Source: Bacteroidia bacterium (GTDB lineage Bacteria; Bacteroidota; Bacteroidia; AKYH767-A; OLB10). Taken from it: a DNA stretch of 64,000 nt. The stretch spans positions 396,481 to 460,480 of the forward strand of contig JAXLTL010000001.1 in assembly GCA_046330075.1 (NCBI GenBank), written 5' to 3'. The notes under the pieces are model-generated. The model did no database searches and was not told the origin of the DNA. It saw only the letters and a program-made list of their open reading frames with translations. Below, piece after piece: positions 489-49,275 of the stretch (positions are counted from its first letter, which is position 1; each line of letters begins with the position of its first letter). Made by a program: the position numbers and the translations under genes.

Positions 489-1733
489 TTATTGTTGGTT
501 TGGGAAAGTTATTTTAATGGTTGTTCCTTGTTCAAGTTCGCTGTGCAGGATGATATGACCTTTCATCAGATCTACGTAACTGCCAACGATGTGTAATCCA
601 AGGCCGGTGCCCTGAATATTGAATGCGTTTTTACCTCTGTAAAACCGCTCGAAGAGGTGCTTTTGATCATCTTCGCTGATGCCGATGCCCTGATCAGCAA
701 CTTCTATACCGATGGTGTAATCATCCACACGCGATCGGATTCTGATGGATTTATGTTCCTTGCTGAATTTAATCGCATTGGAGATAAGGTTGATCAGAAT
801 GTTCTTTAACAGTTTTGGATCAAGATGTATATACTGATCTCCTTTGTGTTCATATTCCAGCGCCTGCCCCGGTTTCAGATTCAGTTGTAAATCTCCAACT
901 ACTTCTTCTATGTTTTCCTTTAAATCAAAATGCCGGTAGTCTGCATGTACTTTGCCTTCTTCCAGCTTGCTGATACTGAGAAAATCACTGAGAATATCAT
1001 TGAGGTTGTTTACAGCAGATTTGATGCGGTTGATGTGTTTTTCACGTTTGTCAGATGCTTCTCCTGCATTGTATTCGTGAATTAAGCTGGCAGAGGATAA
1101 AATGGTGGTTAAGGGTGTTCTGAATTCATGGGAAGCCATCGAAATGAACCTTGATTTCAGGTCATTGAGGTCTTTCTCTTTTTCTAAGGCATTGCTGAGT
1201 TCGTTTCTCGATTTTTCGAGCTCACGTATGGCTTCCTGCAGGACTTTTGTACGGTCACCTACCTTTTTTTCCAATTCCTCGTTGGTAGCGATGAGTGCCG
1301 CGGCAACCCGTTCCAGTTCTTTTTGTTTTTCCTGAATTACATTTTCAATCTGCTTGCGTATCGTTATGTCAATGAGAAAGGCAATGAATAACCGTTCCTC
1401 GCCAACCTGCAGCGGACTTAAACTGATTTCTACGGGAACAAGCTCTCCGCTTTTCTTTCGTGCATATAAATCCAGCCCAACACCCATCGGACGCGCATGT
1501 GCATGTTTCGCGAATTGTTGCCGGTGTTCTGCATGACGCGATCTGACATAGTCTGGCACCAGCTGATCAATTGAGCCACCCAGTAACTCCGACTCTGTAT
1601 ATCCCAGCATCTTGCACCCCGATGGGTTGATTAATTGAATTTTACCACTGGAATTGGTCACAATAATCCCTTCATTCATATGATTGAAGAGAATATCAAT
1701 GATCTCGCGTTTTTCCAGATTGGCCATGTTCAA
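489..1733 (-). CDS. PAS-domain sensor histidine kinase (HisKA + HATPase_c)
   Basis: 414 aa. N-terminal PAS-like region, then a coiled coil, an H-box (SHEFRTPL) and N/G1/G2 boxes (NAIKFS, DQGIGI, GTGLGL). Confidence 0.9.
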   Translation of the reverse strand: MNMANLEKREIIDILFNHMNEGIIVTNSSGKIQLINPSGCKMLGYTESELLGGSIDQLVPDYVRSRHAEHRQQFAKHAHARPMGVGLDLYARKKSGELVPVEISLSPLQVGEERLFIAFLIDITIRKQIENVIQEKQKELERVAAALIATNEELEKKVGDRTKVLQEAIRELEKSRNELSNALEKEKDLNDLKSRFISMASHEFRTPLTTILSSASLIHEYNAGEASDKREKHINRIKSAVNNLNDILSDFLSISKLEEGKVHADYRHFDLKENIEEVVGDLQLNLKPGQALEYEHKGDQYIHLDPKLLKNILINLISNAIKFSKEHKSIRIRSRVDDYTIGIEVADQGIGISEDDQKHLFERFYRGKNAFNIQGTGLGLHIVGSYVDLMKGHIILHSELEQGTTIKITFPNQQ

Positions 1734-15680: not shown

Positions 15681-15711
15681 AAAAGCCCCTGCAATGCAGA
15701 GGCTTTTTTTG
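15681..15711. terminator. Bidirectional terminator shared by the FKBP gene (+) and the histone-like gene (-)
   Basis: aaaagcccctgcaatgcagaggcttttttt: a GC stem with A-run and T-run on either side. Confidence 0.7.
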
Positions 15712-15728
15712 TTAACCCAAGAAGATGA

Positions 15729-16040
15729 TTATTTCTTCTTGGCAGCTTTTTTAGTAGCTTTTTTTGCCCCTTTTTTAGCAGCTTTCTTCGGAGCAGCTTT
15801 TTTAGTAGCTTTCTTCGGAGCAGCTTTTTTGGTTGCTTTCTTAGCAGCTTTTTTAGCGCCTTTTTTCGCAGCTTTCTTAGTCGCTTTCTTAGCAGACTTT
15901 TTAGTTGCTTTTTTAGCAGCTTTTTTAGCTTTCTTAGGAGCAGCCATAGCTTCAACGTTAGTCATTTTGAAGCCGATTACTCGTGTTGCACCAGCAGCAG
16001 TAGCAGTAGTGCCTTTCTTCATTTCCATGTTCTGTTTCAT
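15729..16040 (-). CDS. Histone H1-like DNA-binding protein (Lys/Ala-rich, KKAAKKATKK repeats)
   Basis: 103 aa. After a short N-terminal region the sequence is almost entirely AKK/PKK repeats, typical of Bacteroidetes/Chlamydia Hc1-like nucleoid proteins. The + strand ORFs 15694-16056 and 15620-15955 are antisense artefacts of the repeat. Confidence 0.7.
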   Translation of the reverse strand: MKQNMEMKKGTTATAAGATRVIGFKMTNVEAMAAPKKAKKAAKKATKKSAKKATKKAAKKGAKKAAKKATKKAAPKKATKKAAPKKAAKKGAKKATKKAAKKK

Positions 16041-16203
16041 GTTAGTTGTGTTTTGAATTGGGTTAACGATTATTTGTTGTGGTTTATACTGTCATTTATT
16101 TTTTTTTGTTACATTTTCTGTAACCTTTTTTCAATGGACACTTTTCACGCAACAACTTCTCATTAATTCCGGCAACACGGTGAACAGGTTTTTTTCATTG
16201 AGT

Positions 16204-25474: not shown

Positions 25475-26998
25475 ATGACCTTCTTTCGTTACTTGTTTTT
25501 ATTGATGGTGATTGCGCCGGGAGGATTGATGGCGCAATACAACGGTAATTACTGGTGTTTTGGGGATAGTGTTATGATAAATTGGAGTAACCCTAACAAC
25601 CCTGTAATTGGGGCTTCTTCTTTTGATTTCCGAAACGGATCATCAAGTATTGCTGATTCTAACGGCATACTTTTATATACAGGTTATAATTACAATGTTC
25701 AACCAGTCAGACCCTCGGTTTGGAACAAATATAATAATGATATAAATGATTCAATACGGATCAAAGGTGGCCTTTGGTATCATGCCAGTTTATTTGTACC
25801 TGATCCTGGAAATGATTCAATTATTTATTTATTTACAATTGGTGTTACTCAAGCTGAACAGTACGGTCTATACTACTCCAAAATCAACTATAAAGCGAAC
25901 AATGATTCAGGAATAGTCATTCAGAAAAATGTGCAGCTCAATAATTTTCCGGCATTTGACGCCCTCATGGCTGTACGGCATGGGAACGGACGGGATTGGT
26001 GGTTGATTTTTCAGAGATGGTATACCAATAATACGGCAACATCAGCTTTTTACCTTTATTATATTTCTGACACAGGAATCAGTGGCCCAAGTATTCAAAA
26101 CACAGGATCTCTTAGAAGGTGTAATGGCGGACAATTAGTATTCTCGTCCAATGCCGATAAATTCGCTCAGGTAAGTATTCGTGGTATGATCGAACTATAC
26201 ACCTTCGATCGTTGTACAGGCACGATTACTTCAACAATATCTATTGAACAAGAACCTGCTGTTGCTCCTTACCCGCATTGGTATGCCAGTTGTGCTTTTT
26301 CACCGGATGATTCAAAGTTATATGTAGCAGAATACTCGCAAACCAGTTCACCATCTTATTTATGGCAGTTTGATTTAATGTCTGCGAATATACCCGCGAG
26401 CAAAACTGTGATTGACTCATTCGTTGATCCTGATATGGGAATAGCGCAACTTCGCTTGGCTCCCGATAATAAAATATATTTATCCGCCTCAGATGAAGGT
26501 TTTCCATGGCCTTACCCAGATACCATCACTGCATTCACCACCATCAACAACAACCTCAGTGTCATCAACTACCCGGATAGCCTGGGAGCTGCCTGCGACT
26601 TTCAACCGTTCAGTTTTAATTTAGGAGCGGGTAGAACCTACTACGGCCTCCCCAATAACCCCGATTATGAGCTGGGCGCCTGGGTGGGGAGTCCCTGTGA
26701 TACGTTATCTGTGGGCCTCACCCTCGGCCCCGCAGAGGAGAAGGGAGCCTGGATGCAGGCATGGTATAACCACGAATGGAACATGATTCACGTGAATGCG
26801 GCGCAGTTGAAAGGAAAGAAAGGGATGCTGCGGTTACTTGATATCGAAGGCAGAATCGTTTTCGAAAAACCGGCGGAGGTGTTAGCGGGAGGGTATTATA
26901 CGACGGAGATTTATATGAATGAAATTTCGGATGGGGTTTATGTTGTCAATCTCATTACTGACAAGGAAACATTATCGTTCAAGACTGGGAAATTTTAG
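25475..26998 (+). CDS. Secreted protein of unknown function with T9SS type-A C-terminal sorting domain; the expressed copy at the head of a CTD cassette array
   Basis: Signal peptide, an approximately 430-aa body, and a C-terminal Por_Secre_tail (NMIHVNAAQLKGKKGMLRLLDIEGRIVFEKPAEVLAGGYYTTEIYMNEISDGVYVVNLITDKETLSFKTGKF). Confidence 0.85.
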   Translation: MTFFRYLFLLMVIAPGGLMAQYNGNYWCFGDSVMINWSNPNNPVIGASSFDFRNGSSSIADSNGILLYTGYNYNVQPVRPSVWNKYNNDINDSIRIKGGLWYHASLFVPDPGNDSIIYLFTIGVTQAEQYGLYYSKINYKANNDSGIVIQKNVQLNNFPAFDALMAVRHGNGRDWWLIFQRWYTNNTATSAFYLYYISDTGISGPSIQNTGSLRRCNGGQLVFSSNADKFAQVSIRGMIELYTFDRCTGTITSTISIEQEPAVAPYPHWYASCAFSPDDSKLYVAEYSQTSSPSYLWQFDLMSANIPASKTVIDSFVDPDMGIAQLRLAPDNKIYLSASDEGFPWPYPDTITAFTTINNNLSVINYPDSLGAACDFQPFSFNLGAGRTYYGLPNNPDYELGAWVGSPCDTLSVGLTLGPAEEKGAWMQAWYNHEWNMIHVNAAQLKGKKGMLRLLDIEGRIVFEKPAEVLAGGYYTTEIYMNEISDGVYVVNLITDKETLSFKTGKF

Positions 26999-27313
26999 TT
27001 ACTGGATCATCTTTCGTTTTAAACGCGGTGAGCGCGGCGGTTACGCGGTGAGCGCAACGAAATGAAATCCCGGCCCTCAGCATATCCGGTTTTTTGAGTG
27101 AAGGTAGTGGCGGAAAAGTTCGAGGGTAGCTCCGAATGAAATGAGGAGATCCCCCGAGAACCCGCCACGGACAAGCTCAAAAAATTCCGCGAAAGCGGAA
27201 AGGATATGGTGCAGGCCTTGATCTTTTTGGTTACCCTGAAGCAGAACGAAGTACGCTTCAGGGTAACTGGGGGTTTGGGGGCAAAGCCCCCTTGGTATGC
27301 CCAAGAATGAAGA

Positions 27314-27529
27314 ATGATTCACATGAATGCGGCGCAGTTGATAGGAAAGAAAGGGGTGTTGCGGTTGCTGGATATCGAAGGCAGAATCGTTTTCGAAAAA
27401 CCGGCGGAGGTGTTGGCAGGCGGTTATTATACGACGGAGATTTATATGAATGAAATTTTGGATGGGGTTTATGTTGTCAATCTCATTACTGACAAGGAAA
27501 CATTATCGTTCAAGACTGGGAAATTTTAG
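27314..27529 (+). other. Orphan T9SS-CTD cassette 2 (intact 71-aa ORF with its own ATG; in-frame TGA immediately upstream)
   Basis: MIHMNAAQLIGKKGVLRLLDIEGRIVFEKPAEVLAGGYYTTEIYMNEILDGVYVVNLITDKETLSFKTGKF, 7 aa different from the gene-borne CTD. Confidence 0.5.
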
Positions 27530-27836
27530 TTACTGGATCATCTTTCGTTTTAAACGCGGTGAGCGCGGCGGTTACGCGGTGAGCGCAACGAAATGAAATC
27601 CCGGCCCTCAGCATATCCGGTTTTTTGAGTGAAGGTAGTGGCGGAAAAGTTCGAGGGTAGCTCCGAATGAAATGAGGAGATCCCCCGAGAACCCGCCACG
27701 GACAAGCTCAAAAAATTCCGCGAAAGCGGAAAGGATATGATGCAGGCCTTGATCTTTTTGGTTACTTTTTCTATCAAGAGAAAAAGTGACTGGGGGTTTG
27801 GGGGCAAAGCCCCCTTGGTATGCCCAAGAATGAAGA

Positions 27837-28052
27837 ATGATTCACATGAATGCGGCGCAGTTGAAGGGAAGGAAAGGAATGTTGAGGTTATTTGATATCG
27901 AAGGCAGAATAGTTTTCGAAAAACCAGCGGAGGTGGTGGCAGGCGGTTATTATACGACGGAGATTTATATGAATGAGATGGCTACTGGTGTGTACATTGT
28001 GCAGCTTGTTACGGAGAAAGAGACGTTGTCGTTTAAGACTAGTAAATTCTAG
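27837..28052 (+). other. Orphan T9SS-CTD cassette 3 (intact 71-aa ORF, more divergent)
   Basis: MIHMNAAQLKGRKGMLRLFDIEGRIVFEKPAEVVAGGYYTTEIYMNEMATGVYIVQLVTEKETLSFKTSKF. Confidence 0.5.
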
Positions 28053-28640
28053 TTACAGGATCATCTTTCGTTTTAAACGCGGTGAGCGCGGCGGTTACGC
28101 GGTGAGCGCAACGAAATGAAATCCCGGCCCTCAGCATATCCGGTTTTTTGAGTGAAGGTAGTGGCGGAAAAGTTCGAGGGTAGCTCCGAATGAAATGAGG
28201 AGATCCCCCGAGAACCCGCCACGGACAAGCTCAAAAAATTCCGCGAAAGCGGAAAGGATATGGTGCAGGCCTTGATCTTTTTGGTTACTTTTTCTATCAA
28301 GAGAAAAAGTAACCAGGGGTTAAAGGGGACAGCGTCCCCTTGGAGTGTTTACAAATGGAGAATGCTGAACGCAGTGAAAAGATTTGCAGAATTTTGAAAG
28401 CGGGGTTTATATGGTCAACCTGGTCACGGATCGGGAGACGTTGTCGTTTAAGACGATGAAATTCTAGTTACAGGAGCATTTGTCGGTTTAAACGCAGCGA
28501 AAACGGCGACTCGCAACGGACGCAGGGAAATCTTCATAACATTAAAAACATTTTAACCATTTAACATTTTAACTCCCGCCTTGCGGGATATAACACTTAT
28601 AACACTTATAACATTTAAAACATTTATAACATTTATAACA

Positions 28641-28682
28641 AAAAAAAACGTCCATCCGCAAAGGCGGATGGACGTTTTTTTT
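28641..28682. terminator. Perfect-hairpin bidirectional terminator downstream of the DUF4139 gene
   Basis: aaaaaaaaacgtccatccgc-aaa-ggcggatggacgtttttttt: a 12-bp perfect stem with an A-run and a T-run. Confidence 0.8.
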
Positions 28683-28700
28683 AACAGTTATACTTGATTT

Positions 28701-30323
28701 TTACAACCCCATTATCTGTTTATCCTTCGGATATTTCACCTTGAAGGTTAAACGTTTTTTGGTGGTTTCTCCGGCAGGTATTTGCATCTTCCATTTTACT
28801 TCGCCTGTTTCGCTATTGTATTCGGCACCGCTGAGTTCGTCGATTTTTACTTCGATGTCTTTCTGCATGCTTACCGGTACCTGATCAAGAAGGATGAGCG
28901 AGATGGCTTCTTTCTTGCCGTTTTTAACAGTGATGTCGTAACTCAGATTCCGTTCTTTGTTTCCGCCGAAGAGTTTGTTTCCGCTGAGGTCTTTGAGTTT
29001 TTCGCGTTTTACAACAATGCGTTTGTCGCGGCCCAGGGATATTTCAAGCGTGTCATTGGATTCAGCAGGGTTGATATACGATTCTCCAACATAGGCACCG
29101 TCGAAGTAAATGTTGGCACCGCCGGGCGATAAACTGAGGTCTTCCCAGCCGGTGATTTTCGCAGTGAGGAAGGCATCTGCATCGAGTTTGGGTATAGCCA
29201 CATAGTTATATTCGGCCTGCAGGTTGTATTTCTGTATTTCTACCTGGTATTCCTGTCCATCGGATGGAATGGTGTAGGGCGTCATGATGTCGAAGGAGGA
29301 GTTGAGCGCATTCTGGCTTACGTTGACTTCGATGGCTTTCATGGCCACCTTTGCATCTTCTTCCCGGTCCCTTGCTCCGGCGGCAAGAGTTTGTTCTTGC
29401 ATGACAGGAGCGGCCATCGGAACGGCACCTTGTTTACCGTATAAGGCCACAGGCATGTAGTAGTTGAGCATCCAGGGGTATAAAACCGGGCGATCATTGC
29501 CAATGGAGGGATTGCCGGTGCTCAGACTGAGTTTTACCTGGTTCCAGTCTTCGCCGCTGCTTTGATTGACCTTGGCTTTGTAAACAAGCTCAAAGGGGCT
29601 GTTAACGTCTTTCGCTTTGAGATCATAAAACGCATACCAGCTTACATTGGATTGGATTACATAACTGAAATCAAATCCTGCCATGCCACGCGCTCCCGCA
29701 TTTACTTTTACAATGATATTACCGGTGGGCTGATCGTTTTTGGCTCGCAGTGTATTGAGTTGTTGCTGCAGCTTACCAACCTGCTCGTTGAGCTTTTTCT
29801 CTTTTTGTTGTTCTTCGAGCTGGTCTTGCTTGAGTTCTCCCATCTTCTTGATAAAATAGTCCACCATGGGCTCCAGTTCATCGGCCAGCACACCGTTGTT
29901 GGCACCACCGATGCTTTTGTTGGCGGTCAGCAGACTTTGTGTTTCAGTGAGCACCGCGATTTTATTTCTGACCTGTTGTAAACGGAGGGTGAGGGAGTCG
30001 AGGTCTCCTTCAAGACGCTGTACTTCTTTGGATTTCTTTTTTTCTTTGAGATAGTTGGTCTGGAAAGTGACGGATAAAATGGTGGCATCGCCGGTGCCTT
30101 TGAGCATGATGCTTTGTGGATTGATGTAGGGGGAAAGTCCGTCGAAAACGACTTCCTGAATGCCCGGATTAAGGGTGGCTTTGGCGGTCCTGCTGACCAT
30201 CGCCCCGTTTTGATAAATGCGTACGTCTTTGATGTCGGCATTGCTGACCCATACCGGGTCCTGGGCAAGGAGGGGGAGCTGCAACAGGCAAAATGCTGCG
30301 AGCATCCGGGCGAATTTTTTCAT
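28701..30323 (-). CDS. DUF4139/DUF4140 protein (mucoidy-inhibitor MuiA-like, TIGR02231 family)
   Basis: 540 aa with a signal peptide, an N-terminal DUF4140-like region, a central coiled coil (LEGDLDSLTLRLQQVRNKIAVL...) and a C-terminal beta-rich domain. Confidence 0.55.
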   Translation of the reverse strand: MKKFARMLAAFCLLQLPLLAQDPVWVSNADIKDVRIYQNGAMVSRTAKATLNPGIQEVVFDGLSPYINPQSIMLKGTGDATILSVTFQTNYLKEKKKSKEVQRLEGDLDSLTLRLQQVRNKIAVLTETQSLLTANKSIGGANNGVLADELEPMVDYFIKKMGELKQDQLEEQQKEKKLNEQVGKLQQQLNTLRAKNDQPTGNIIVKVNAGARGMAGFDFSYVIQSNVSWYAFYDLKAKDVNSPFELVYKAKVNQSSGEDWNQVKLSLSTGNPSIGNDRPVLYPWMLNYYMPVALYGKQGAVPMAAPVMQEQTLAAGARDREEDAKVAMKAIEVNVSQNALNSSFDIMTPYTIPSDGQEYQVEIQKYNLQAEYNYVAIPKLDADAFLTAKITGWEDLSLSPGGANIYFDGAYVGESYINPAESNDTLEISLGRDKRIVVKREKLKDLSGNKLFGGNKERNLSYDITVKNGKKEAISLILLDQVPVSMQKDIEVKIDELSGAEYNSETGEVKWKMQIPAGETTKKRLTFKVKYPKDKQIMGL

Positions 30324-46990: not shown

Positions 46991-47022
46991 CTTTATACTT
47001 CATCATTGTAATAGTGGGAGTA

Positions 47023-47360
47023 AATTTCCCTCGGTTCCCAGAGTTGCAAATCCAATGAAAAAACGCTTCGCGTTTCATTTCTTTTTTCTGGCTTGTGCTC
47101 TCATACAAGTTTGGATCACTTGTCAGAAAAAAGAAAAGGCTTCCGTTGGAAGCCTTTTTCATTGGATTTACCCGTGGTCCCAGAGGGATTGAATTTCCCT
47201 CGGTTCCCAGAGTTGCAAATCCAATGAAAAAACGCTTCGCGTTTCAATTCTTTTTTCTGGCTTGTGCTCTCAAACAAGTTTGGATCACTTGCCAGAAAAA
47301 AGAAAAGGCTTCCGTTGGAAGCCTTTTTCATTGGATTTACCCGTGGTCCCAGAGGGATTC
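47023..47360. repeat. Two tandem 169-bp units (47023-47191, 47192-47360); each contains two terminator-like hairpins and ends with a copy of the last 16 nt of tRNA-Arg plus its 3' flank
   Basis: The units are more than 95% identical. The motif tggtcccagagggatt (reverse complement of the tRNA 3' end) occurs at 47175 and 47344. Hairpins: aaaaggcttccgttggaagcctttt and aacgcttcgcgtt. The + and - ORFs across this region are repeat artefacts. Confidence 0.85.
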
Positions 47361-47417
47361 AAACCCCCAACCTTCTGATCCGTAGTCAGATGCTCTATTC
47401 AGTTAAGCTATGGAACC
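47344..47417 (-). tRNA. tRNA-Arg (anticodon ACG), 74 nt, no encoded CCA
   Basis: Manually folded. Acceptor GGTTCCA/TGGGACC; D-stem GCTT/GAGC; anticodon stem TCTGA/TCAGA with loop CTACGGA (U33, anticodon ACG, G37); T-stem GGGGG/CCCTC with loop TTTGAAT; discriminator A. Confidence 0.85.
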
Positions 47418-47727
47418 ATTCCCGTTTTCGGGACGGCAAAAATAGTGGAATTATCTCATAGAGCAAAAAAAATGATTTTACTTTTTCAGGTAATTCAAAA
47501 AGTGATTGTATCTTATTGATAATAAATATATTGAAAAGTTGGTGAAAGACTTGCGAGATGCGTTTAAATGCGATTTTTCTTTATTGACCACCTGAGTCAT
47601 AACCATGGAAACATTGGGTTGAAAAGAATTCCTATGGGTTCATCGTTGATAGCATTTCAGGATGTTGGAGTTACCTGGTTGTAACGTAGTATTTCAACCC
47701 TTATCTTTACTTTCCCAAAACAATGTA

Positions 47728-49275
47728 ATGCGCTTCTTCCTGGCCTTCCTGTTGCTCTCAGCCTATAGCCTGAAAGCACAAAACGTGCAGATCAGTTCTG
47801 CGAACCTGCCCAATGAACCATCTATCATGATGGATCCTAAACATCCGCAGTACCTGATCGCAGCATCCAACATCGACAACTATTATCTCAGCAGCGATAC
47901 CGGACATACCTGGACAGCGCATAATTTATCATCTTCCTATGGTGTTTGGGGTGATCCGATGATCGCAGTAGATACCGCAGGTGACTTCTACTTTTTTCAT
48001 CTCAGTAATCCGGCTTCCGGAAACTGGATCGATCGTATCGTTTGCCAGAAAACAACGGATCATGGTCAATCCTGGAATAATGGATCTTTTACAGGGTTGA
48101 ACGGAACAAAAGCACAGGATAAACATTGGGTGGCGATCGACCGGAACAATAACAACATGTATGTTACCTGGACGCAGTTCGATTCTTATGGCAGTTCGGA
48201 CCCTCTGGATTCATCGATCATTCTTTTTTCTCGCTCACTGGACGCCGGACAAACCTGGTCGACTCCGGTAAGGATCAACAAAGTGGCTGGCGACTGCATC
48301 GACAGTGATAACACCGTGGAAGGTGCTGTACCTGCTGTTGGCCCGAATGGTGAGGTTTTCGTGGCCTGGGCCGGACCCAATGGATTAGTGTTTAATCGCT
48401 CCCTCGATCAGGGACTTACCTGGCTGCCAAATGAAATCGCGATTGACCCAATGCCTACCGGTTGGGATTATGCTGTTTCAGGTATTTACCGAGCCAATGG
48501 GTTGCCGGTTACTGTTTGTGATGTCAGTGGCGGACCGAATAACGGAACAATTTATGTCAATTGGTCTGATCAACGAAATGGCGCCAGCAATACAGATATC
48601 TTCCTGGCAAAGTCGACAGACGGGGGCAACACCTGGTCGGCACCGGTGAAAGTGAACAATGATAATTCCAACCGTCAGCAGTTTTTTACCTATATGGCGA
48701 TTGATCAAACCAACGGAAATCTATACTTTGTTTTTTATGACCGCAGGCGATTTACCTCTGATTCAACGGATGTATATCTTGCACTTTCCACAGATGGCGG
48801 AAGCACGTTCATCAATCAACGAATCAGTGCAACACCTTTTTATCCGAATGATCAGGTGTTTTTCGGTGACTATACGAATATAACTGTGCACGATGGCATT
48901 GTGCGCCCGATCTGGACACGCCTTCACAATGGACAGCTTAGTGTGTGGACAGATCTGGCATCTTATGCTTCAATGACCACCGGCACAAACGAGGCCGAGG
49001 TCAGCAACGATAATAACGTCACCGTATATCCGAATCCTGCGAGTGATGTCAGTTATCTCTCTTTCAAATTACATGAGAAATCATCGGTACGTATCTCGGT
49101 TTTGAATTCGAAGGGGCAGGAGGTAAAGGAAGTCCTTAAAACAGAATCACGTCCCTTCGGTAAATACCTGGAGAAAATCGATCTCCGTGCATTAGGCCTT
49201 TCTTCCGGTAATTATCTGCTCCGGCTGGAAATAAACGGGAAAGTGCATACGTCCCGCCAGATTATTGTTGACTGA
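47728..49275 (+). CDS. Secreted BNR/Asp-box repeat (sialidase/glycoside-hydrolase-like) protein with T9SS C-terminal sorting domain
   Basis: Signal peptide MRFFLAFLLLSAYSLKAQ; Asp-boxes SSDTGHTW, TTDHGQSW, SLDAGQTW, SLDQGLTW, STDGGNTW, STDGGSTF; C-terminal Por_Secre_tail (VTVYPNPASDVSYLSF...GNYLLRLE). Confidence 0.8.
   Translation: MRFFLAFLLLSAYSLKAQNVQISSANLPNEPSIMMDPKHPQYLIAASNIDNYYLSSDTGHTWTAHNLSSSYGVWGDPMIAVDTAGDFYFFHLSNPASGNWIDRIVCQKTTDHGQSWNNGSFTGLNGTKAQDKHWVAIDRNNNNMYVTWTQFDSYGSSDPLDSSIILFSRSLDAGQTWSTPVRINKVAGDCIDSDNTVEGAVPAVGPNGEVFVAWAGPNGLVFNRSLDQGLTWLPNEIAIDPMPTGWDYAVSGIYRANGLPVTVCDVSGGPNNGTIYVNWSDQRNGASNTDIFLAKSTDGGNTWSAPVKVNNDNSNRQQFFTYMAIDQTNGNLYFVFYDRRRFTSDSTDVYLALSTDGGSTFINQRISATPFYPNDQVFFGDYTNITVHDGIVRPIWTRLHNGQLSVWTDLASYASMTTGTNEAEVSNDNNVTVYPNPASDVSYLSFKLHEKSSVRISVLNSKGQEVKEVLKTESRPFGKYLEKIDLRALGLSSGNYLLRLEINGKVHTSRQIIVD

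Follow-up and report, generated by a model that had tools for sequence, protein, structure and literature searches.

Among described systems, the concerted evolution of type IX secretion system (T9SS) cargo families whose members have a C-terminal sorting domain (CTD) in common appears to be the situation closest to the locus analysed here. The KLIKK protease gene clusters of Tannerella forsythia contain nearly identical CTDs and neighbouring pseudogenes (PMC4404884), and the surface proteins of Porphyromonas gingivalis have been subject to domain rearrangement and allelic exchange (PMC5266723). PorU removes the CTD after export in the systems studied (PMC4560394, PMC4804311, PMC8545088). We analysed a stretch of 64,000 nucleotides, hereafter the window, from the Bacteroidia bacterium contig JAXLTL010000001.1, in which the plus-strand T9SS cargo gene U0Y08_01740 (25475-26998) is followed by two 5'-truncated copies of its own CTD-coding sequence and a deleted remnant of another, set apart by spacers that contain a structured element. 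On balance we favour the view that this array was left behind when members of a multicopy cargo family underwent gene conversion and unequal crossing-over, with no device behind it.

The cargo gene encodes a protein of 507 aa that begins with a Sec signal peptide (MTFFRYLFLLMVIAPGGLMAQ) and ends in a sorting domain, which is encoded from ~26783 onwards. Homology between the copies starts at a Trp codon, found at 26762 in the gene (the start of repeat unit 1), at 27293 in the first downstream copy (cassette 2, U0Y08_01745, 27293-27529) and at 27816 in the second (cassette 3, MFN8152996.1, 27816-28052). The remnant (CTD 4, ~28330-28466) has lost ~110 nt internally, its last codon being the TAG at 28464-28466; all copies lie on the plus strand. 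These observations agree with the initial annotation, which had described the CTD as re-encoded behind the gene with a regular period: the units follow one another at start-to-start distances of 531, 523 and then 415 nt. The two open reading frames (ORFs) that it had reported, 27314-27529 and 27837-28052, are intact and encode 71 aa each, with a TGA in frame ahead of both, at 27308-27310 in cassette 2 and at 27831-27833 in cassette 3. This TGA is a local tgg-to-tga change in the window, the same junction being read through in other assemblies (TGG; PWDAKEWNMIH), and the ATG at which the cassette ORFs start is an internal Met codon of the full-length CTD (EWNMIH). The downstream copies have neither the signal peptide that is present in the gene nor an upstream gene body. 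The annotation pipeline PGAP nevertheless lists both cassettes as genes, naming cassette 3 'T9SS type A sorting domain-containing protein' and cassette 2 a hypothetical protein, and a second stand-alone CTD ORF is found in the same 1.44-Mb contig (U0Y08_04620).

The CTD copies have diverged in a manner that their spacers have not. They differ from one another at 17, 38 and 45 of 237 positions (up to 19%), against one or two differences in 232 positions of the adjoining spacer, and the synonymous divergence (dS) between cassettes 2 and 3 reaches 0.68 despite their near-identical spacers. The ratio of non-synonymous to synonymous divergence (dN/dS) in the CTD is similar for all classes of comparison (∼0.13 between full-length genes, 0.16 between cassettes and 0.15 for gene against cassette). 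Variable sites in the CTD are arranged in blocks, and the same mosaic blocks recur in cassettes and full-length genes. Differences between the CTD of the gene and cassette 2 are confined to the 5' 135 nt, the 3' half of this cassette being essentially identical to the gene. In cassette 3, the divergent 3' block (MATGVYIVQLVTEKE) has the substitution pattern of the matching block in a full-length gene on contig L009 of a related assembly and stops at the stop codon, while the 3' block of a cassette on contig L004 is that of the window's expressed CTD. The 3' half of the remnant belongs to the common VNLVTDRETLSFKT allele class, which also occurs in L001 and L002.

Contig L001 is 100% identical to the window over 25541-26740 and differs by 8-10% in the CTD from ~26794 onwards, placing the breakpoint at the start of the CTD. 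Together with the block mosaics of the CTDs, this supports the suggestion of the initial annotation that the copies recombine. Such mosaics of CTDs and genes are, on sequence grounds, the pattern expected of gene conversion and unequal crossing-over in a multicopy family. Gene bodies are also patchy: in L002 and L003, compared with window positions 25541-26540, stretches of 400-500 nt that are 100% identical lie beside stretches of 50-80% identity, in complementary patterns, reflecting either frequent recombination among paralogues or strains, or chimeras produced by MEGAHIT. The comparison contigs are mostly short-read metagenome assemblies, which may be chimeric across repeats. This applies to the hybrid cassettes P0122, P0124 and L032 in such contigs, of which L032 may be a true second locus or else chimeric.

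The cargo family itself is large. Searches returned 2744 family homologues of the 507-aa protein in uncultured Bacteroidia, and the family is a T9SS cargo gene family confined to one lineage. Several paralogues lie on a single contig, frequently in tandem, with very similar CTD-coding 3' ends and 3' flanks. The body of the protein has no Pfam match and no sequence match in the PDB. Assignment of the CTD to T9SS type A is weak but consistent: with TIGR04183 (cut-off 23), cassette 3 scores 25.3 bits, while the gene (16.7 bits) and cassette 2 (18.5 bits) are both under the threshold, and PF18962 is precomputed on most family homologues among those listed. All CTD copies are of this one type, with 75-95% identity, which does not fit the earlier proposal of switching between CTD subtypes. 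The array is specific to this family, since a second T9SS cargo gene in the window (47662-49275), which encodes BNR/sialidase-like repeats and a Por_Secre_tail domain (42.7 bits), has neither cassettes nor an element behind it.

The spacers, of 294, 286 and 288 nt, had been described as one conserved, non-coding unit of ∼300 bp with hairpins and a duplicated motif. We confirmed the conservation, the hairpins gggggcaaagccccc and ccgcgaaagcgg and the duplication of acgcggtgagcgc, but each spacer is composed of two parts, ∼70 nt of family-type 3' flank and a discrete element of ∼220 nt. The flank, which contains the duplicated acgcggtgagcgc motif, occurs in each unit (26999-27070, 27530-27601 and 28053-28124, plus strand) and is homologous to the sequence behind the remnant (28467-28530) and to the flanks of the single-CTD relatives L001, L002 and L003. 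The core of the element follows directly, at 27071-27223, 27602-27754 and 28125-28277 on the plus strand, scoring 170.8, 170.3 and 170.8 bits, respectively, with our covariance model R1. Neither a repeat search nor the covariance model detected further copies in the 64-kb window.

GGCC/GGCC pairing closes the predicted fold of the core, a three-way junction whose arms include a long one and a short hairpin, CCGCGAAAGCGG, and the folding energy of copy 1 is far from that of shuffled sequence (z-score −6.9). Six to seven distinct element sequences from other assemblies arrive at the same three-way junction through double substitutions, with compensatory changes in 20 of 73 predicted pairs. Within the core, 94.9% of cells form pairs, against 41-46% when the partners are slid along the alignment as a control; there are 17 compensatory pairs, against two to four in the slid controls, and none of 500 shuffles reached the observed values. 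The fold of the core is therefore strongly supported by covariation, RNA and single-stranded DNA (ssDNA) being indistinguishable in such data. Because G-U pairs occur on the plus strand of the element and A-C combinations do not, it is the coding strand of the cargo gene that folds. This observation also disfavours a minus-strand RNA with a terminator, a candidate raised by the T-runs that follow the hairpins on that strand. The claim that the spacer is structured and non-coding is borne out, since the long minus-strand frames are not conserved as protein between element types, whereas base pairs are kept by compensatory changes; we rejected a protein-coding spacer for the same reason. A known RNA family was likewise rejected: Rfam 15 gave nothing above gathering thresholds in the window or in nine loci with the element or its 45-nt module (described below), and relaxed searches over the element regions gave chance-level sub-gathering matches only, for example to microRNA models. 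The element is a strand-specific structured RNA (or ssDNA) repeat, and our best guess is that it is akin to a repetitive extragenic palindromic (REP) sequence located in the 3' untranslated region (3' UTR).

The 3' end of the element forms two small hairpins, whole stems of which are exchanged from one unit to another, and the variants recur in other assemblies. Copy 1 (27214-27292) has GGCCTTGATCTTTTTGGTTAC and a variant hairpin CCCTGAAGC..GCTTCAGGG, found also in L020, L023 and L027; TGGGGGTTT comes next, and then the hairpin GGGGGCAAAGCCCCC, directly adjoining the Trp codon of cassette 2. Copy 2 (27745-27815) has a 45-nt module and the hairpin GGGGGCAAAGCCCCC, and copy 3 (28268-28340) the 45-nt module and, as its last hairpin, the variant AGGGGACAGCGTCCCCT that L008 has as well; all lie on the plus strand. 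The 45-nt module (GGCCTTGATCTTTTTGGTTAC, a hairpin and GTAAC; window 27745-27790 and 28268-28313) contains the stem TTTTTCT/AGAAAAA with a loop, ATCAAG, complementary to an upstream CTTGAT. Pairing of the loop with the upstream CTTGATC could give a pseudoknot or alternative hairpins. The module has no Rfam family, and it recurs with 21 of 21 nt exact in unrelated metagenome loci. There it stands alone, behind other structured domains that R1 does not recognise, in L019 (∼690-760, minus strand), L021/L024 and L026 (9351-9416, minus strand), in the last case upstream of genes for a DinJ-like antitoxin and a PIN toxin.

Composite units of element and 5'-truncated CTD were not restricted to this locus. 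They occur in at least five gene neighbourhoods of related assemblies, often between tandem paralogues: before a MuiA-family gene and RecF in the window (RecF being MFN8152998.1) and the syntenic contig L005; between rplU/rpmA and a gene for a 717-aa T9SS protein in L004; before a thioredoxin-like gene and ApbE in L008; before a gene for a 202-aa T9SS protein and a family paralogue in L009-L013; and between tandem family paralogues in L022, L025 and L028. At the loci read, the junction is invariant, the last hairpin of the element abutting the TGG that opens the CTD. Searching proteins with cassette 2 as the query gave 37 clusters of stand-alone CTD ORFs, most of them on short contigs, in a census that is biased towards intact ORFs. 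Decay is nonetheless evident: cassettes are frameshifted in L016, L025 and L028, the window's fourth copy has its deletion, and elements have lost their 5' end in L009 and L027. Scanning GTDB species representatives and JGI metagenomes with 21-24-mers from its most conserved stretch located the element in a few assemblies only. One metagenome-assembled genome (MAG), the GTDB representative CAZHSC01, contains three complete elements with no CTD (L014, L015 and L017); it is titled 'uncultured Bifidobacterium sp.', and its elements and modular intergenic repeats resemble those of Bacteroidia loci, which suggests that the bin is mislabelled or contaminated. A short REP-like motif downstream of the element in L015 and L017, considered as a possible link, failed to match the window owing to a 1-nt indel, and the REP relationship stays a suggestion.

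Relatives without cassettes do exist. In L002 and L003 the CTD is single and the element is missing, and L008 has a unit before the orthologous downstream gene. We withdrew L001 as a further empty site, its flank being cut by an insertion sequence (IS) whose other end abuts element and cassette in L005. The array thus comes close to the functionless tandem duplication that had been entertained as the alternative to a switching system, with the difference that it is a composite repeat present at many loci and not one simple local duplication. Of the roles first proposed, a duplication-driven evolutionary intermediate is near to our own conclusion, and a dedicated system of silent cassettes for phase or antigenic variation found no support.

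On the recombination reading, the history of the array might be as follows. In an ancestor of the clade, a structured repeat of ∼220 nt would have become joined, in a single event, through its 3' end to the first (Trp) codon of a CTD, creating a unit of element and 5'-truncated CTD. With a CTD on either side of flank and element, ordinary homologous recombination could act on this unit; the array would grow and shrink by unequal crossing-over between CTDs, and the unit could be copied behind other family genes by gene conversion or by reintegration of a looped-out unit. Diverged paralogues would patch the CTD copies by conversion, in tracts that end with the CTD homology. A limit of this kind would explain why near-identical spacers stand beside CTDs that differ by up to 19%, and it would explain the sharp edges of the mosaics, because conversion tracts cannot pass the end of the homology. 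The cargo gene should still work, since its own CTD, the first, is complete and ends in a stop codon. The downstream copies probably belong to a 3' UTR of ∼1.6 kb with its end at a hairpin (28641-28682), co-transcription to that point being suggested by the lack of any other plus-strand terminator-like site in the array. The cassettes then look selected only because their divergence arose in, or is refreshed from, functional genes.

Several observations weigh against this account. Most cassettes keep intact 71-aa ORFs with dN/dS of ∼0.16, which direct selection would fit as well. The junction of element and CTD is invariant in all lineages sampled and every copy of the element found in this lineage has a cassette behind it, a tighter linkage than neutrality requires. 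The core, 100% identical, and cassette 2 are found on two different left flanks, in the window and in L033, with the break exactly at the 5' end of the element; this breakpoint hints at a discrete insertion unit over recombination inside CTDs. The evidence for mosaicism comes largely from short-read contigs that may be chimeric, and transcription and recombination are themselves deduced from sequence comparison.

The discrete breakpoint leads to the alternative that the unit is a non-autonomous, self-propagating module, in which a structured element with a replacement CTD would enter T9SS cargo genes at their 3' end, whether a looped-out circle recombines with the CTD in Campbell fashion or an enzyme acts in trans, the old CTD being displaced downstream. 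The layout of gene body, three units and a displaced, damaged CTD with an element-free family flank suits such a process, as do the recurrence of the same junction at many loci, the discrete 5' and 3' boundaries of the element with an identical core on two left flanks, its presence or absence at the L002/L008 locus, the contig with a 100%-identical gene body and a different CTD from the CTD boundary onwards, and a strand-specific structure as in ssDNA-active elements. However, the array has neither a transposase nor an integrase gene in its vicinity, we saw no sign of terminal inverted repeats or target-site duplications, every copy detected lay beside family-type sequences or in repeat-rich contig ends, and there was no match in plasmid or phage collections or in viral contigs. 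Several copies have decayed, and L001, where the IS cuts the flank, is not a proven empty site. We consider this explanation unlikely, and quite improbable its extended form, namely that element and CTD make up an undescribed self-propagating module on one T9SS cargo family, which brings a sorting domain of its own and so lets the host gene survive; the element with its 45-nt hairpin/pseudoknot module would then be functional RNA or ssDNA of a new class, either driving the process or profiting from it.

A selected silent-cassette system resembling pilE/pilS, in which CTDs are swapped for phase or antigenic variation or for subtype switching, would fit the geometry, with its one expressed locus and partial, 5'-truncated copies in the same orientation that combine common and variable segments and are promoterless by consensus scan only. 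Sequence blocks common to cassettes and expressed CTDs, mostly intact ORFs with low dN/dS and the hybrid cassettes P0122 and P0124 in metagenomes would all be in keeping with it. Yet the segment that varies is one that PorU cleaves off and that is absent from the mature surface protein, so that, if this holds here, variation in the CTD cannot change the exposed protein, contrary to the antigenic role first suggested. The copies are of a single CTD type, with no recombinase nearby. The array and its borders hold no four-tract G-quadruplex (G4) motif, just two G-tracts (TGGGGGTTTGGGGGC), both within hairpins. No reverse transcriptase, integrase or transposase is encoded among the Pfam-scanned ORFs flanking the array (∼13.2-35 kb of the window), which are housekeeping genes, and the syntenic locus L005 has no reverse transcriptase or recombinase. 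Frameshifted cassettes, truncated elements and elements without a CTD in another MAG do not suit a dedicated system, the L004 cassette has no family gene upstream, and the hybrid contigs may be assembly chimeras; we judge such a system very unlikely. A further idea is that the cassettes are real small genes with the element as a 5' leader or promoter-bearing RNA, the 71-aa CTD-only protein acting, for example, by titrating T9SS components. ATG-initiated 71-aa ORFs are conserved in 37 clusters with dN/dS of ∼0.16, PGAP annotates them as genes and the element always lies directly upstream. The T9SS takes its substrates from the periplasm, and with no signal peptide a CTD-only product could not reach it; moreover, a consensus scan found no promoter-like site in the spacers, the ATG is merely the internal Met noted above, some copies are frameshifted, and in other assemblies the frame continues upstream into the hairpins, all of which make functional small genes highly improbable. 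Finally, short-read assemblies break or turn mosaic at these repeats, as they would if the array were a repeat mis-expanded in assembly, but an artefact is extremely improbable given that the units differ in CTD blocks and hairpin modules, that independent ENA assemblies contain element, cassette 2 and flank at 98-100% identity, with cassette 3 on five ENA contigs, that the window comes from a contig of 1,439,706 bp and that the orthologous locus in another MAG has element and cassette beside MuiA/RecF.

Other candidate systems were tried and rejected. Orphan modules of polymorphic toxins do not apply, since the modules here encode a sorting signal and the spacers are non-coding, with no immunity gene. 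Integron attC sites were dismissed for want of an integrase among the Pfam-scanned flanking ORFs and because the GGTTAC...GTAAC hairpin has the opposite core arrangement to RYYYAAC ... GTTRRRY. An IS110 bridge RNA or IS200/605 omega-RNA, brought to mind by an IS110 gene in L006 and by TTGAT and TTAC in the 45-nt module, was set aside, there being no such gene in the window or at most loci. A phage or plasmid origin found no match in phage or plasmid collections, and matches to viral contigs were chance 18-mers.

Downstream of the remnant, the family flank has no element (28467-28640, plus strand). It contains (TATAACATT)n 9-nt repeats at 28589-28640 and a aactcccgccttgcggga hairpin, both of which also occur behind single-CTD relatives. 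AT-rich 9-nt repeats of this type are present in several flanks of family genes (window 28536-28647; L002 3800-4000; L004 10290-10420), and among them small hairpins such as aactcccgccttgcgggatt and ccctgcctgccggcaggcaggc come and go between otherwise homologous flanks; they look like REP-like micro-elements. The perfect 19-bp hairpin that follows (28641-28682) lies between A8 and T8, and terminator parts of unrelated Rfam models align to it. It looks like a bidirectional terminator for the cargo-array transcript and for the convergent MuiA-family gene (28701-30323, minus strand), with which it would be shared. The flanks are also sites of insertion. The palindrome tcccgatagctatcggga is the insertion point, or else the boundary, of an IS that encodes a DDE_Tnp_1 transposase (L001 2140-3595; L005 1-130; L027 1-100; L004 9730-9750). 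It occurs with no IS in other flank copies (L004, L009) and may represent a hairpin targeted by the IS or the footprint of an excision. In L006, an IS110-family transposase gene (789-1805) lies within the GC-rich 3' flank, after cttaaccgcgggga, directly behind the cassette; the flank is uninterrupted in L005.

Two further repeats were seen elsewhere in the window. Directly downstream of tRNA-Arg(ACG) (47343-47417, minus strand), a 169-nt sequence is repeated twice in tandem with 96% identity (47013-47417); a hairpin terminator (aaaaggcttccgttggaagccttttt) is present in both copies, and the final ∼25 nt of the tRNA (cccgtggtcccagagggatt) form the end of each. The window thus has a second re-duplicated gene 3' end, which could be an integration scar or the result of slippage. 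The other is a 12-nt-periodic repeat (15736-15955), over which a plus-strand ORF of 120 aa with no Pfam match is called (15694-16056). The repeat is T/C/G-rich as printed and would give a Lys/Ala-rich reading only on the opposite strand; the product may be a histone-H1-like DNA-binding protein.

If the array is indeed a recombination relic, it offers a natural example of how homologous recombination in a multicopy family of secreted proteins can make orphan domain fragments. Such fragments can pass for 'cassettes' and be annotated as genes, as PGAP has done here, and stand-alone CTD ORFs in Bacteroidota MAGs should by default be treated as relics. Composite repeats of this kind break short-read assemblies and can yield chimeric contigs. 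We regard the novelty of the arrangement, in which orphan copies of a sorting domain are fused to a structured repeat and recur at several loci, as modest, the structured repeat being the only new item: an element supported by covariation and with no Rfam family, a candidate new structured RNA in a narrow uncultured clade, whose 45-nt module occurs in unrelated bacteria. A new mechanism would be at hand only if the unit were actively mobile or if the element drove CTD exchange.

How the locus relates to known systems can now be stated more precisely. With pilE/pilS of Neisseria it has in common an expressed gene with promoterless, 5'-truncated copies in the same orientation and mosaic exchange between them, a likeness that is geometric only: the varied segment here is a cleaved signal and not an exposed epitope, there is no G4 or small-RNA initiator and some cassettes are decayed. 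Conversion in pilE/pilS is programmed and directional, whereas that in the array is deduced from sequence comparison. Diversity-generating retroelements (DGRs) also place repeated, variable C-terminal coding copies of a surface or secreted protein beside a structured RNA-like segment, but we rejected a DGR, as the initial annotation had done: the flanking ORFs of the window and L005 encode no reverse transcriptase, all four bases are substituted whichever two copies are compared, with no adenine specificity, and the differences fall in recombination blocks. The islands at tRNA 3' ends, which keep the interrupted gene whole by bringing a substitute for its 3' end and push the original one downstream, offer another parallel, and the tandem 169-nt repeat behind tRNA-Arg in this window re-duplicates a tRNA 3' end as well; unlike these integrative elements, the array has no integrase that we could find, its units measure only ∼525 bp and homologous recombination alone could explain their spread.

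The element taken by itself recalls REP sequences and bacterial interspersed mosaic elements (BIMEs), enterobacterial repetitive intergenic consensus (ERIC) and BOX sequences and miniature inverted-repeat transposable elements (MITEs). Like them it is multicopy, structured, non-coding and located in 3' flanks, it exchanges hairpins as modules and its stems change in compensatory fashion, an IS is inserted nearby and assemblies break at its copies. Its ends are discrete and its copies lie in several contexts, with only a handful per assembly. It differs from REP and MITE sequences in its larger three-way junction, the absence of terminal inverted repeats and target-site duplications, its low copy number and its linkage to the CTD in this lineage. 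No REP-associated tyrosine transposase (RAYT) was identified, no genome-wide transposase search having been made.

The nearest likeness remains that to the T9SS cargo families themselves, which, as here, have clustered paralogues with near-identical CTD ends, shuffled C-terminal modules and pseudogene fragments beside genes. What sets this locus apart from the KLIKK clusters and the P. gingivalis surface proteins is that the CTD alone is tandemly reiterated, that each copy is welded to a structured element and that the resulting composite is found at several loci.

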